Shown here one piece after another: positions 18,183 through 36,431 of a stretch of DNA of 36,834 nucleotides; position 1 is the stretch's first letter; each line of letters begins with the position of its first letter. A program made the translations under genes and the position numbers. This DNA is from a virus: IMG/VR virus record IMGVR_UViG_3300025890_000008, one strand, 5' to 3'. Under the pieces are notes generated by a model that ran no database searches, was not told where the DNA came from, and saw only the letters and a list, made by a program, of their open reading frames with translations.

Positions 18183-18577
18183 TTAGTGCGTTAATAGGCC
18201 CGGTTAGTGCCATACTAGATAAGGTTATTCCTGATACAAACTTAAAAGAAAAGTTGTCTCATGAAATAGCTACGATGGCTGAACGTCATACCCAAGAACA
18301 GGTTATGGCGCAGATCGAGGTTAATAAAATTGAAGCAGCTCATAATAGTATGTTTGTTGCTGGCTGGCGACCTGCTATTGGTTGGATATGCGCTTTGGGC
18401 ATGGCTGGCAACTTTTTAATTATACCGTTTGTAAACATGGCTCTTGAGTTATTTGAAACGGGTGTAGAGATACCGTTAATAGCATTGAGTGAGATGATGC
18501 CTGTTCTAATGGGCATGTTGGGTTTAGGCGCAATGAGAACCTTTGAGAAAACTAAAGGTGTTTCGAGGGAAAAATAA
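18179..18577 (+). CDS. Holin (3-TM, GTA-holin-like family)
   Basis: ALIGPVSAILDKVIPD ... FVAGWRPAIGWICALGMAGNFLIIPF ... MPVLMGMLGLGAMRTFEK matches my recollection of Pfam GTA_holin_3TM. Confidence 0.65.
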   Translation: MISALIGPVSAILDKVIPDTNLKEKLSHEIATMAERHTQEQVMAQIEVNKIEAAHNSMFVAGWRPAIGWICALGMAGNFLIIPFVNMALELFETGVEIPLIALSEMMPVLMGMLGLGAMRTFEKTKGVSREK

Positions 18578-20532
18578 TGGATAATCCATTTATTACTGGC
18601 CTTGCTGCGGCAGGAAGACAAGTACGAAACAATACTGTTGGAACCGTTGACTCTCTTTCTGGAGATGATGGCAGTTCTAGTATAGATTATACCCCTTGGG
18701 ATGAGCTTTTGGGTTTTTATGCTAAAGAAAGCACTGAAGGCTCTGAATCGGAAGTAGCCAGCATTTTAGCTGACCAGGCTAGAGGTCAGCTAGATTTATT
18801 ATATGGCTCCGAATTGCCTGAAAACGAAAAAGCAGCACTCCTCGCGGATTATTTGCAAAGGTCTGGATTTAGTGCAGACATTGTTCCGCAACTAAGTGGT
18901 GGTCAGTTTACTAAAGAAGACGTAGTTTCAACTTTAGCCAAATATGGCTACGGCTCTAGCGGTCAACAGTTACCAAGCACAGAAGAAAGAGGGGAAATTT
19001 TAGGAGGAGATTATCCATTTGCTAATCAAGCTATGGGAACTACAGAAGTTACCCAAGATACCGTTAATCAAATTCTTGCTGGAGCTATAGCAGCCCGTCA
19101 AGAAATTATGGGAGACACTGCTTTTCCTACAAGAGAACAAGAGTTAGCTGTACAAGCAGCGGTTGCTGATTTGTTTTTTAATGCTGGTATTGGAGTAGAC
19201 CAAAGCACAATTAATCCGTACAGCTTAGAGGGAGATTCTCTTGGTCGGTTTGTAGACCGGATTACAGTTGTAGATGAAACTGCTGAATCTAGTAGTTCTG
19301 CCGCTGCTGAAGCTGCTGCCGCCGATTCTTCTGCTGATTCTTCTGCCGCCGATTCTTCTGCTGATTCTTCTGCTGATTCTTCTGCTGATTCTACGGCCTT
19401 ATTAGATAACGAGCTTTTAAAAGCAGATTCTGCTCTAGGCGATAGTACACTATCAGACGATTCTTCAACAATTGATGGCGTAACAATTACAGGCGCATCT
19501 GGGCCTATAAGCACATCTGGGCCTATAGATACAAGAACTACAAGCACAACAACAGATTCTGAATCTGCGTCTTCTTATTCATGGATATATGAAAACGGTA
19601 AGTTTGTTTACGCTCCTTTTGATATTAATGGCACTAGACTTCCTGGTGGAGAAACAGTTTCTGTAGGGGATGTTAGTGGTACTGAAGGAAAAGTTTTTAC
19701 AGAAGGAGAAACTGTAAGTATTTTAGACTTGGAAGAAGGATTTAAATTAGAGCATGGAGGAGCTCCAGAAGATACAGGTGGTGTAACTACAAACACAACA
19801 GTTGACCTATCTGGATTGCTTGATATAACTGGCCCTGCTACTGGCTCTATTATTGGCCCTATTGTTACAGGCGGGGGTTTAGTGAATGATGTAATTAATA
19901 ATGTGCTTACAGATACCACAGATACTACAGATACTACAGATAATGCTGATGAATTAGACGGATTAGACGGTGCTGATGGTAATGACGGATTAGACGGATT
20001 AGACGGATTAGACGGATTAGACGGAGATGATGGATTAGATGGTGATGATGTAGATGATGTAGATGATGAATTAAATGGATTAGACGGAGCTGACGGAGCT
20101 GACGGAGCTGACGGAGCTGATGGTGCTGATGGTGCTGATGGAGCTGATGGTGATGACGGAGCTGATGGCTTAGATGGCTTAGATGGCTTAGATGGCTTAG
20201 ATGGCTTAGATGGCTTAGATGGCTTAGATGGCTTAGATGGAACAGATGGAACAGATGGAGCAGATGGCTTAGATGGAGCTGATGGAGCTGATGGAACAGA
20301 TGGATTAGATGGAGCTACAGGAGCTACAGGAGCTACAGGAGCTGCGGGAGAACAAGGAGAAAAAGGAGAAAAAGGCGAGGCTGGGAAAGATGGAATGATA
20401 GGATTGTTTAGCCGAGTCATTAATGAAACACCTATTGCAGATTCAATTTTGTTTGAGCCAAAGTTTACGAAACTAGATAACATTCCAGTTGGGATGTTCG
20501 AGCGATTTTTACAGGCCGCAGGAGGCAGGTAG
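18577..20532 (+). CDS. Acidic virion protein with Ser/Asp repeats and a long collagen-like Gly-X-Y domain
   Basis: 651-aa ORF. It has SSADSS repeats, DTT x3, then 10 plus about 36 Gly-X-Y triplets, mostly G-L/A/T-D and ending GEQGEKGEKGEAGKDG. Confidence 0.75.
   Translation: MDNPFITGLAAAGRQVRNNTVGTVDSLSGDDGSSSIDYTPWDELLGFYAKESTEGSESEVASILADQARGQLDLLYGSELPENEKAALLADYLQRSGFSADIVPQLSGGQFTKEDVVSTLAKYGYGSSGQQLPSTEERGEILGGDYPFANQAMGTTEVTQDTVNQILAGAIAARQEIMGDTAFPTREQELAVQAAVADLFFNAGIGVDQSTINPYSLEGDSLGRFVDRITVVDETAESSSSAAAEAAAADSSADSSAADSSADSSADSSADSTALLDNELLKADSALGDSTLSDDSSTIDGVTITGASGPISTSGPIDTRTTSTTTDSESASSYSWIYENGKFVYAPFDINGTRLPGGETVSVGDVSGTEGKVFTEGETVSILDLEEGFKLEHGGAPEDTGGVTTNTTVDLSGLLDITGPATGSIIGPIVTGGGLVNDVINNVLTDTTDTTDTTDNADELDGLDGADGNDGLDGLDGLDGLDGDDGLDGDDVDDVDDELNGLDGADGADGADGADGADGADGADGDDGADGLDGLDGLDGLDGLDGLDGLDGLDGTDGTDGADGLDGADGADGTDGLDGATGATGATGAAGEQGEKGEKGEAGKDGMIGLFSRVINETPIADSILFEPKFTKLDNIPVGMFERFLQAAGGR
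19324..19392 (+). repeat. 12-nt tandem repeat (gattcttctgct, about 5.5 copies) encoding (DSSA)n
   Basis: Read directly. In frame within the 18577..20532 CDS. Confidence 0.9.
19960..20409 (+). repeat. 9-nt periodic coding repeats (collagen-like). Includes 8 perfect tandem copies of ggcttagat at 20167-20238.
   Basis: Triplets counted codon by codon: 10 Gly-X-Y (19960-20049), a 9-residue VDDVDDELN break that preserves the register, then 36-37 uninterrupted Gly-X-Y (20077-20409). Confidence 0.9.
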
Positions 20533-21180
20533 ATGACATATTTAGAAGCAATTAATAACGTCCTCCGCAGATTAAGAGAAGATGAAGTAACTACTACGCA
20601 AGAAACTTCGTATTCTGGTTTGATAGGCGATCTAGTAAATGATGCAAAAAAACTAGTAGAAGACTCATGGACTTGGTCTGCATTACGCAGCACCATAGAA
20701 GTACCCACAGTAATTGGTCAAGCAGAGTATTCTCTTACTGGCTCCGGTCAAAGCGCAGTTATTAAACAAGCAATGAGCAGTAGTGGTTACGGTTTTTTGA
20801 CGCTGAATACTGTCCCATATTTTGACAACCTATACTTTAATCAAACTCCTGCTAGTGCAGTTCCTACTGATTACATTGTCAGTGGAGTAGATGATAACGA
20901 TGATCTAAAGGTAAAGGTTTATCCACAGCCTGACGCTGTGTATACATTAAGATTTGACATAGCTGCGCCACAGACCCTATTAACAGCAGATGCTACTAAG
21001 ATTAAAGTTCCGTATCATCCTGTTGTACAGATGGCTTATGCTATGGCTCTTCGCGAAAGAGGTGAGACAGGTGGTCAGTCAGCAGCAGAGCAGTTTGCCG
21101 TAGCTTCTTCTGCGTTATCAGATGCAATAGCAGTAGACGCTAACAGATACCCCTTAGAAACAACTTACATGGTGGTATAG
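20533..21180 (+). CDS. Putative tail adaptor or tail tubular protein A-like
   Basis: 215-aa ORF directly upstream of a 509-aa tail-type protein and the internal-protein genes. Assigned by synteny with podovirus late operons. Confidence 0.5.
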   Translation: MTYLEAINNVLRRLREDEVTTTQETSYSGLIGDLVNDAKKLVEDSWTWSALRSTIEVPTVIGQAEYSLTGSGQSAVIKQAMSSSGYGFLTLNTVPYFDNLYFNQTPASAVPTDYIVSGVDDNDDLKVKVYPQPDAVYTLRFDIAAPQTLLTADATKIKVPYHPVVQMAYAMALRERGETGGQSAAEQFAVASSALSDAIAVDANRYPLETTYMVV

Positions 21181-35376: not shown

Positions 35377-35394
35377 GCCCCCTTTCGAGGGGGC
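35377..35394 (-). terminator. GC hairpin downstream of the methyltransferase gene
   Basis: gccccc-tttcga-gggggc. No U tract on the minus strand. Confidence 0.3.
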
Positions 35395-35406
35395 AACCTT
35401 TACCCT

Positions 35407-36264
35407 TTACATTACCGCCTTTATGATTTCCGCTGCCGCTTGCGGGACAATGGCGTTACCCGCTCCCCTGAGCAAGCCCACTCGATTGGGTATCCCATCA
35501 GCCAGAGGGAAAAGCGCGGATTCAGTTGGGATGGGACGGCACTTTCCGTCTCGGCAATAGATGGTTTGTGAGTCAGACCAGAAACCTGCTGAGTCAATGG
35601 AATCCCGGTGTCCTGCGGTCTCGGCGGCTTCGTGCCTCTCTTGGGGTCTGTTGCTGTCGGGGTTGCCCAGGGTGTCAGTTGAGCCGCTACATCCAGTGTG
35701 TCCGTTGATATCTTCCCGTTGCGAATCCTCCCGCCCTTGTATCCTCCCTTGTGGTCTCTCGTTGATGGAGTCGGCCACGAAGAATAGTCTGTCCCTTTTG
35801 TGATACGCGCCGATGCTGCCAGATGGTAGTACGACTGCCCCGCTGGCGTAACCTTCCGCTTCAAAGTCGTCTTGTAAATCATCGAGCCATCCATGTCGGA
35901 TAGCTGCTGCAACTTGTTCACCAAAGACTGCTGTAGGTTGGCACTCTCGGATGAGATTAAAGAAGACAGGCCAGAGGTGTCGCTCGTCATCTTTTCCCTT
36001 TCCTTTCCCTGCTGTTGAGAATGATTGGCAGGGAGGGCTTCCCGTCCAAACAGGTCTGTCTGAACTCCACCCCGCGAGTTGCAATGCTCTTGACCATCCG
36101 CCGATTCCTGCGAAGAAATGGCACTGGGTAAATCCGGTAAGTTCTGATGGCTCGACATCTGCAATACTCCTATTATCCACTTCACCGTCTGGAATTAATC
36201 CGTCTTTGATAAGCTGTTTTAGCCATTCGGCTGCAAATTTGTCCCACTCGTTGTAGTAATTCAT
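35407..36264 (-). CDS. DNA (cytosine-5)-methyltransferase
   Basis: Motif I HFFAGIGGW, motif IV GSPPCQSFS, motif VI FGEQV, motif VIII HKRDRLFFVA and motif X GAGNAIVPQ. The gene is visibly GC-rich relative to the rest of the genome. Confidence 0.85.
   Translation of the reverse strand: MNYYNEWDKFAAEWLKQLIKDGLIPDGEVDNRSIADVEPSELTGFTQCHFFAGIGGWSRALQLAGWSSDRPVWTGSPPCQSFSTAGKGKGKDDERHLWPVFFNLIRECQPTAVFGEQVAAAIRHGWLDDLQDDFEAEGYASGAVVLPSGSIGAYHKRDRLFFVADSINERPQGRIQGREDSQREDINGHTGCSGSTDTLGNPDSNRPQERHEAAETAGHRDSIDSAGFWSDSQTIYCRDGKCRPIPTESALFPLADGIPNRVGLLRGAGNAIVPQAAAEIIKAVM
35421..36158 (-). CDS. Candidate overlapping gene in the +1 frame of the methyltransferase gene (245 aa from the ATG at 36158; the frame is open from 36185)
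   Basis: AGGAG lies 8 nt upstream of the ATG at 36158. The frame has no stop for 254 codons. It contains WPTPSTRD and WATPTATD repeats and an LNPRFSLWLMGYPIEW motif. The long open frame is partly favoured by high local GC. Confidence 0.35.
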   Translation of the reverse strand: MSSHQNLPDLPSAISSQESADGQEHCNSRGGVQTDLFGREALPANHSQQQGKEREKMTSDTSGLSSLISSESANLQQSLVNKLQQLSDMDGSMIYKTTLKRKVTPAGQSYYHLAASARITKGTDYSSWPTPSTRDHKGGYKGGRIRNGKISTDTLDVAAQLTPWATPTATDPKRGTKPPRPQDTGIPLTQQVSGLTHKPSIAETESAVPSQLNPRFSLWLMGYPIEWACSGERVTPLSRKRQRKS

Positions 36265-36431
36265 AGAATCCTTCTACTGGCCTCTAATGGCCTCTCTGGC
36301 GATCCCTTTCCCAATTCTATTTCCAAGGCACGATTGCATGCCCGGCACAGAGCTTGGCCGTCAATAACTTCGTTAGCTGCGTCACTCACAGGAAGTGTCT
36401 TTTCACACTCGTAACACATAAACACTCGCAT
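36261..36431 (-). CDS. Zinc-ribbon miniprotein (56 aa)
   Basis: Hand translation: MRVFMCYECEKTLPVSDAANEVIDGQALCRACNRALEIELGKGSPERPLEASRRIL*, with CxxC...CxxC. ATGA overlap with the methyltransferase start. Confidence 0.5.
   Translation of the reverse strand: MRVFMCYECEKTLPVSDAANEVIDGQALCRACNRALEIELGKGSPERPLEASRRIL

Follow-up and report, generated by a model that had tools for sequence, protein, structure and literature searches.

In monomeric DNA (cytosine-5) (C5) methyltransferases the segment between conserved motifs VIII and X forms a small DNA-recognising domain, which consists of a variable region and motif IX. The two-polypeptide C5 enzymes named in a paper of 2012 are M.AquI and M.EcoHK31I alone (PMC3404938). 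In M.EcoHK31I (E. coli HK31; target YGGCCR) the beta chain is encoded out of frame within the gene for alpha (Lee, Kam and Shaw 1995, as described in PMC2836561 and PMC3404938); alpha carries motifs I–VIII and X, beta carries motif IX, and both chains are required (PMC2836561, PMC3404938). When the beta starts are removed by silent changes, methylation in vivo is lost; beta supplied from a second plasmid restores it (PMC2836561). In M.AquI (target CYCGRG) motifs I–VIII lie on the large subunit, and the distal variable region together with motifs IX and X on the small one (PMC3404938). Here we describe a methyltransferase gene (frame A) with a second open reading frame (ORF; frame B) nested inside it in the IMG/VR virus record IMGVR_UViG_3300025890_000008. 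The window analysed is the whole stretch of 36,834 nucleotides (nt), and all positions refer to it. We put at roughly 80% the probability that this locus encodes a heterodimeric C5-methyltransferase of the M.EcoHK31I type, with a motif IX-bearing beta chain nested inside the alpha gene.

As in M.EcoHK31I, frame B (36158..35421) is found wholly inside frame A (36264..35407) in the +1 frame, with motifs I–VIII and a putative motif X on A and a motif IX-like element, of weak E-value, on B (Table 1). The likeness extends to the N-terminal part of beta, which is partly dispensable in M.EcoHK31I, while the first ~62 residues of B are unconstrained here. The sizes are also similar: A and B comprise 285 and 245 amino acid residues (aa), respectively, and the alpha and beta chains of M.EcoHK31I are reportedly 309 and 176 aa long. 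The two differ in that M.EcoHK31I is part of a restriction-modification system, whereas the present gene belongs to a phage and shows no restriction-enzyme match among the neighbours scanned; furthermore, the VIII–X segment of the alpha-like chain is unconstrained here, and a conserved modular variable region is present on B. M.AquI is likewise a natural C5 enzyme built from two polypeptides and split within or around the variable region, but its genes lie in series. A linear split of that type was considered and rejected for this locus, where motif X resides on the large chain and B is nested, ending 14 nt before the A stop.

The +1 frame is open from a GTG at 36185 to the stop at 35423–35421. 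It contains no stop codon across gene nt 70–841, compared with 15 for the +2 frame over the whole gene, and its first ATG is found at 36158–36156. The octapeptides WPTPSTRD (B aa 128) and WATPTATD (B aa 164) are spaced 36 residues apart. The antisense ORFs of the region span 60–109 codons, and the gene has a G+C content of ~0.53. A first-pass annotation, made from the letters of the window without database searches, had reported the coordinates of both frames, the open +1 frame, the spacing of AGGAG and ATG, the W-x-T-P repeats and the range of the antisense ORFs, all of which were confirmed in the sequence.

Homologues were fetched with frame A as the sole query, so that frame B had no influence on the sampling. 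The +1 frame is open in 40 of 40 full-length IMG/VR loci (42–99% identity, G+C 0.45–0.60), from nt 55–112 to 14–83 nt before the A stop, and the +2 frame holds 9–33 stops. A second scan, using conserved A patterns from a cross-phylum alignment, yielded 78 further full-length loci (41–63% identity, G+C 0.49–0.72); none of the 78 has an internal +1 stop, and their +2 stops average 8.8 and are never zero. The pairing of A and B is kept in every one of the ~135 loci examined. Synonymous-codon shuffles of this A gene produce a mean of 4.1 +1 stops, with zero stops in 0 of 300; those of eleven homologues produce 4–7, and codon-order shuffles 5–9, and shuffles of both kinds never or almost never reach zero. 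One could suppose that base composition or codon usage keeps the frame open, or that the locus is a frameshifted pseudogene or a sequencing error. The first-pass annotation had itself warned that high local G+C lowers the frequency of stops, and gene callers choose only one of the two frames. At a G+C of ~0.53, and with 4–9 +1 stops after shuffling and 9–33 stops in the +2 frame, that caveat fails as an explanation. The frame is open from 45% to 72% G+C, also in isolate phage genomes; both frames are intact in more than 100 independent assemblies; and B is under purifying selection with neutral internal controls (below). This supposition therefore has next to no probability in our estimation, being ruled out by openness in homologues, by the shuffles and by selection on B.

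Selection was assessed from codon-position entropy and with an OLGenie-type estimator on 187 sequence pairs of 70–95% nucleotide identity, and the two approaches agree. Upstream of B, at A aa 1–30, only A is constrained (dNN/dSN 0.05) and the +1 frame is neutral (dNN/dNS 0.97). Constraint is again limited to A at aa 37–99 (0.09), where the B leader is weakly constrained (0.75; interval 0.53–1.06). Both frames are constrained at A aa 100–164 (A 0.19; B 0.49, interval 0.32–0.72), essentially B only at aa 165–232 (A 0.73, interval 0.57–0.93; B 0.46, interval 0.37–0.58), both once more at aa 233–262 (A 0.31; B 0.26, interval 0.11–0.44), and A only at aa 263–280 (A 0.06; B 0.75). The +2 control frame gives values of at least 1.2 in every region. 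By these values, B is under purifying selection precisely where A is unconstrained, and A and B both are where conserved parts of the two coincide. Precisely over the conserved parts of B, the synonymous rate of A (dSN) drops from 1.44 to 0.17; this is the excess synonymous constraint that had been put forward as a test of dual coding; in the linker of A (aa 165–232) the most variable codon position is A position 1, equivalent to B position 3. Each frame also stays open through its own freely varying part, the leader in B and the linker in A, which is expected only if both full-length chains are translated. The claim of genuine dual coding is thus upheld by openness in homologues, by selection on both frames and by the conserved motifs of B.

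The start of B is conserved together with its Shine-Dalgarno (SD) sequence. All 19 homologues with the B ATG at gene nt 106 use AGG-AGY for the Arg-Ser pair of A, which places AGGAG 8 nt upstream of that ATG; the pair is found in none of the 16 homologues in which B starts at nt 88, and AGG represents 15% of Arg codons overall. Most of the homologues with the nt-88 start possess GGAG upstream of an ATG that immediately follows a +1 stop. This covariation of AGGAG with the position of the ATG is congruent with the earlier proposal that B is initiated from an SD of its own.

Frame A matches Pfam PF00145 (1e-17, aa 74–169) and, end to end, phrog_363 (2.7e-79). Using hhalign, its profile aligns to M.HhaI over residues 5–173, which represent motifs I–VIII, with a probability of 97% and nothing aligned past them; A therefore corresponds to the large catalytic domain. 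The C-terminal 90 residues of the M.HhaI sequence used (238–327, including motif IX) were verified as identical to PDB chains. Catalytic motifs I, IV, VI and VIII are all located on A, with F51, G53, G55, P78, C79, Q80, E116, R157 and R159 invariant. Residues G269, N270 and A271 are invariant among the homologues of both Firmicutes and proteobacterial phages and lie within the strongly constrained aa 263–280; this putative motif X (G-N-A) could not be aligned to known enzymes by Pfam, HMMER or hhalign. No motif IX is detectable in A by Pfam or by hhalign to M.HhaI, and no conserved variable region (target-recognition domain) was found between VIII and X, where aa 165–232 are indel-rich and nearly unconstrained. 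The first-pass annotation, in describing frame A as a complete Dcm-type enzyme, was correct on motifs I, IV, VI, VIII and X but not on completeness. The linker of A is in effect the modules of B read out-of-frame, such that WPTPSTRD in B corresponds to VADSINERP in A. At the opposite end of the protein, A aa 4–11 (YNEWDKFA; 36232–36255) align to motif II of M.HhaI (YSNEWDKYA), yet lie upstream of motif I, so that the order of the two elements is reversed relative to M.HhaI. In the Firmicutes-phage homologues (Diva, R9.1) A begins directly at motif I; consequently the proteobacterial-type enzymes seem to have undergone a local permutation or gained an N-terminal extension.

The element missing from A is found near the C-terminus of B, as had been suggested. 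The sole hhalign match of the B profile to M.HhaI pairs B 208–228 with HhaI 270–290 (RKLHPRECARVMGYPDSY), that is, with motif IX. Alignment of 22 diverse homologues of B, drawn from Paenibacillus and Lacticaseibacillus phages, coliphages and Verrucomicrobia metagenome-assembled genomes (MAGs), reveals the pattern LNP-x5-LMG-x-P-x-x-W, in which L212, N213, P214, L220, M221, G222, P224 and W227 are invariant. Both this pattern and the W-x-T-P repeats are conserved at the protein level in phages of Proteobacteria and Firmicutes and in MAGs. To judge from its sequence, B is encoded exactly where monomeric enzymes encode their small domain, and carries the motif of that domain. Its N-terminal domain (aa 63–125), which overprints A motifs VI–VIII and is conserved across phyla, is a candidate for the interface with A.

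The central part of B is modular. Among the 120 homologues listed, each B protein possesses between one and six W-x-T-P modules in shuffled order, protein length correlates with module number (r = 0.91), and at least 20 module types occur in differing combinations. Module 1 is 24–27/36 (67–75%) identical in N15, SEN5, ESSI2 and a Flavobacteriales MAG, unlike the remainder of B, which is only 25–35% identical in the same group; elsewhere the identity is at most 15/36. Its distribution is patchy, and it is absent outside this group.

Homology searches reveal that B is widespread. A search with B recovered 1103 homologues called as genes, most of which are 40–69% identical over 96% of B. The profile search with the B product that the first-pass annotation had recommended returned a PHROG match (phrog_1008, 9.7e-31) and, in a set of 1.84 billion representative proteins, 24,924 clusters at E≤1e-3, of which 6,652 reach E≤1e-30. 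No Pfam domain was found in the 1103 homologues, and no NCBIfam match for B. Against PDB sequences the B profile matched a SusC homologue (E 0.13), which was dismissed as a chance match only. AlphaFold2 modeling of B from an 84-sequence alignment gave a predicted local distance difference test (pLDDT) score of 52, with only aa 66–117 confident (72–84); that of A, from 69 sequences that are mutually too similar, gave 41.

These data bear on a different explanation, namely that A alone is a working methyltransferase and B a real but separate overprinted protein, with a DNA-binding, regulatory or anti-defence role, rather than a subunit. The C-terminal block W..C.DGK.R..FPL..G, which A retains before motif X, could serve as a minimal recognition element, and the missing Pfam and NCBIfam assignments and the mostly low-confidence structure model leave room for such a role of B. 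We nevertheless regard this as unlikely, since the only motif IX-like element is on B and none is on A, the conserved part of B falls exactly where monomeric enzymes encode the small domain, the nested chain of M.EcoHK31I is required for activity, and a separate protein is at odds with the pairing of A and B in all of the ~135 loci.

Alternatively, the two frames might yield a single chain, by +1 ribosomal frameshifting or by mutation, running from A (motifs I–VIII) into B (modules and motif IX) and possibly back into A (motif X). This locus possesses AAA-AGG-G (Lys-Arg in motif VIII), which we take to be a plausible +1 shift-prone context, and one relative shows what such a product might look like: contig L075 (361–1320) lacks one nt of the A4 run of CACAAAAGGG, and the result is an in-frame A-B fusion of 319 aa (protein P0062). 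This contig is 96% identical, and P0062 joins the N-terminus of A to the C-terminus of B, with an extra module; either natural variation or an error of assembly could account for it. The fusion is known, however, from this single 2-kb Logan contig, and AAA-AGG is confined to the clade of the present locus, many other members having ATC-CGN or similar at that site. A fusion at the motif VIII site would also lack both the R-x-R of that motif and motif X. Nor does frameshifting need a B frame open for 130 codons upstream, an SD and ATG, or selection on B over A aa 100–164, and it would not require A to be open through the linker. A single chain is accordingly very improbable, and a programmed +1 frameshift at AAA-AGG-G was rejected because the shift site is not conserved in the family.

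Several considerations weigh against a heterodimer of the M.EcoHK31I type. The translation of B, its binding to A, the methylation activity and the role of the modules are all things that we infer. The motif IX match is short and, as a pairwise alignment, weak (E 0.03–0.05). Pfam finds neither motif IX nor X, even in an artificial A-B-A chimera; a chimera of A (I–VIII), B (modules and IX) and A (X), as well as C-terminal pieces, gave no Pfam gain over A alone. The AlphaFold2 models of both proteins are poor, and equating B with the small domain relies on primary structure. In published accounts of M.EcoHK31I, the predicted target-recognition domain is assigned to alpha rather than to beta. The present locus agrees with M.EcoHK31I in every architectural feature of that type, as compared by published description. 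Lastly, the sequences used in the selection tests are phylogenetically related, and the confidence intervals are site bootstraps only.

If the heterodimer is accepted, a two-polypeptide DNA (cytosine-5) methyltransferase would be produced from two nested frames of one mRNA. Translation of A would begin at 36264, coupled to that of a small upstream ORF through an ATGA overlap, and B would be initiated independently at the internal AGGAG-N8-ATG (36158). The B product would consist of a disordered leader, a small domain of a helix and a hairpin, two W-x-T-P-x-x-x-D modules and the motif IX element. A and B would presumably associate into the active enzyme, as do alpha and beta of M.EcoHK31I, and the modules of B may set the choice of target or contribute to it. 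The ancestral reading path most likely ran from A (motifs I–VIII) to B (variable region and motif IX) and back to A (motif X). The earlier idea of overprinting holds for half of each frame, but not for the rest.

The genomic setting is that of a phage replication module, with a primase zinc finger, a DnaD-like loader, a helicase, Erf and an exonuclease, and no restriction-enzyme match was found among the seven neighbouring ORFs scanned against PHROGs. Taken together, these two observations make an orphan enzyme most likely, that is, a self-protective (anti-restriction) methyltransferase. The small upstream ORF (36261–36431, minus strand) encodes 56 aa with two CxxC pairs (CYEC...CRAC) and has no match in PHROGs; its end forms the ATGA overlap with the start of frame A, which points to coupled translation of the methyltransferase. 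At 35377–35394 (minus strand), 13 nt past the frame A stop and between the methyltransferase and a primase-like gene, is a G+C-rich hairpin, GCCCCCTCGAAAGGGGGC; no T-run follows it. Elsewhere in the window, a 366-codon antisense ORF (19608–20708, minus strand) is found opposite the tail-fibre gene (18577–20532, plus strand), which matches collagen-like tail protein families. This antisense ORF has only a marginal PHROG match (1e-4) and is most probably not a gene but a consequence of the scarcity of stops that goes with Gly-X-Y repeats.

Using tblastn, B matched 234 phage records. A B-like sequence is found in the +1 frame of the annotated methyltransferase in every phage record opened: K1G, fTaEco01, N15 gene 58, Diva (Paenibacillus), R9.1 (Lacticaseibacillus), RcPacific (Rhodobacter), BcepC6B, SEN5 (P2-like), ESSI2, Dunaliella viridis virus SI2 (DvV-SI2) and phiKX2. 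The last is a variant, its annotated coding sequence (CDS) being itself part of the B frame and overlapped at the expected offset by an unannotated A-like frame. Eight MAG loci share the nested layout, including Verrucomicrobia, Flavobacteriales, Desulfarculales and Gaiellales; a contig scan with the B alignment gave 11 loci, too few for host inference. Among plasmids, tblastn of B detected only N15-like phage-plasmid Dcm genes. In the RefSeq plasmid and most of the RefSeq phage records examined only A is annotated, as "DNA cytosine methyltransferase". Some annotators have recorded the inner ORF, as "Mte8-like protein" (K1G ORF30) or "g49 internal gene" (Diva gp50); no informative source for the name Mte8 was found. 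In a related 28-kb ENA contig (L074, 1368–2225) the gene caller took only B (245 aa) even though an intact A (285 aa) is present; the pipeline decides which half of the enzyme enters the record. No description of a nested methyltransferase gene as a general phage feature was found in the literature searched.

Three homologues depart from the usual layout. The "cytosine methylase" annotated in DvV-SI2 (L061, 1419–1823) is a 134-aa remnant, in which the N-terminal 30 residues of A are joined to the linker and motif X block, motifs I–VIII being missing; its +1 frame still encodes a W-P-T-P unit of the module 2 type and LNP..WLMG.P..W. In a deltaproteobacterial MAG (L066, 976–2874) the A homologue is 633 aa in length, with a Lys-rich insertion of ~280 aa and a second copy of motif VIII (GAPHIRSR... 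and GSPHIRQR...), and only the distal 153 codons of the B frame are uninterrupted. In protein P0302 (524 aa) B-like residues 237–524 are fused in frame to a 236-aa N-terminal part containing an NPPY motif, which is typical of N6-adenine methyltransferases. P0302 has no Pfam match; an adenine methyltransferase gene located upstream may here be read through into the B frame.

Table 1. Features of the nested methyltransferase locus, with positions numbered along the window
Feature	Position	Strand	Remarks
Frame A CDS, alpha-like catalytic chain	35407..36264	(-)	285 aa + stop; motifs I–VIII, linker, C-terminal motif X
A motif I, FFAGIGGW (S-adenosylmethionine-binding loop)	36094..36117	(-)	Invariant in alignments; pairs with M.HhaI FAGLGG
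A motif IV, PPCQSFS (catalytic Cys)	36016..36036	(-)	P-C-Q invariant; pairs with M.HhaI PCQAFS
A motif VIII, HKRDRLFF	35779..35802	(-)	Pairs with M.HhaI QKRERIYM; R157 and R159 invariant; overlaps B RITKGTDY
A linker, aa 165–232	35569..35772	(-)	Low-complexity, indel-rich, nearly unconstrained (dNN/dSN 0.73, 0.57–0.93)
A C-terminal conserved block, W..IYCRDGK.RP..FPLADG..RVG.LRG.GNAIVPQ	35410..35568	(-)	Includes motif X at 35440–35460
Frame B CDS, beta-like chain	35421..36158	(-)	245 aa + stop; +1 frame, wholly nested inside A
AGGAG, Shine-Dalgarno-like site for B	36167..36171	(-)	8 nt upstream of ATG 36158; formed by A codons AGG-AGT (Arg32-Ser33)
B leader, aa 1–62	35973..36158	(-)	S/Q-rich, predicted disordered, weakly constrained, always open; pLDDT <50
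B conserved N-domain, aa 63–125	35784..35972	(-)	Predicted helix, then beta-hairpin (GS.IYK.T.K.K.TP.G..Y..L.AS..RT)
B module 1, WPTPSTRDHKGGYKGGRIRNGKISTDTLDVAAQLTP	35670..35777	(-)	W-x-T-P module
B module 2, WATPTATDPKRGTKPPRPQDTGIPLTQQVSGL	35568..35669	(-)	Recurrent "TATDP" type among 360 catalogued modules; also in DvV-SI2
B motif IX-like element, LNPRFSLWLMGYPIEW, B aa 212–227	35478..35525	(-)	Overlaps conserved A ESALFPLADGIPNRVG

Two further systems merit comparison. The C5-methyltransferases of the Bacillus phages SPR, phi3T, rho11s and H2 are multispecific single polypeptides, with tandem, exchangeable target-recognising modules between motifs VIII and IX. They resemble the present locus in being phage-borne and modular, B having one to six shuffled W-x-T-P modules of putative recognition function, but they use one frame and one chain, whereas two frames are used here, and to our knowledge their module sequences are unrelated to those of B; multispecificity at this locus is putative. 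Among nested genes, the Rz/Rz1 spanin genes of lambdoid phages are an example (PMC11445585). There too one phage gene lies wholly within another in the +1 frame, the products form one complex, and gene callers routinely miss the embedded gene; the function is unrelated, and Rz1 is ~60 codons long, compared with an overlap here of 245 codons in which both frames are partly conserved.

The nested two-chain design is already known from M.EcoHK31I; to this the present data add the presence of the layout in all relatives examined, the modular make-up of the inner chain and its absence from most annotations. Outside small viruses, long overlaps on one strand with selection on both frames are seldom seen, and annotation pipelines do not allow them; here the dual-coded stretch comprises 245 codons and is conserved across bacterial phyla. 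How two frames share constraint can be studied cleanly at this natural locus, each frame being "ancestral" in a different half. The beta-like chain is without a Pfam or NCBIfam model, and, as only one frame is usually annotated, thousands of phage "Dcm" annotations may describe half an enzyme. M.EcoHK31I has already been used for engineered, targeted methylation; if the modules of B set specificity, they would provide a naturally exchangeable recognition cassette, carried by a different chain from the one with the catalytic motifs. We give even odds to a wider reading, in which nested alpha and beta are an ancient design and the norm throughout a very large clade of orphan C5-methyltransferases from phages and prophages (N15 gp58, the P2-like Dcm of SEN5 and ESSI2, K1G, BcepC6B, and the Paenibacillus and Lacticaseibacillus phage enzymes), with beta as the specificity subunit carrying shuffled W-x-T-P recognition modules. 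If that is true, these would be two-subunit, potentially multispecific enzymes whose ancestral reading path changes frame twice, and the overlap would rank with the longest same-strand gene overlaps of prokaryotic viruses and with the most widely conserved.

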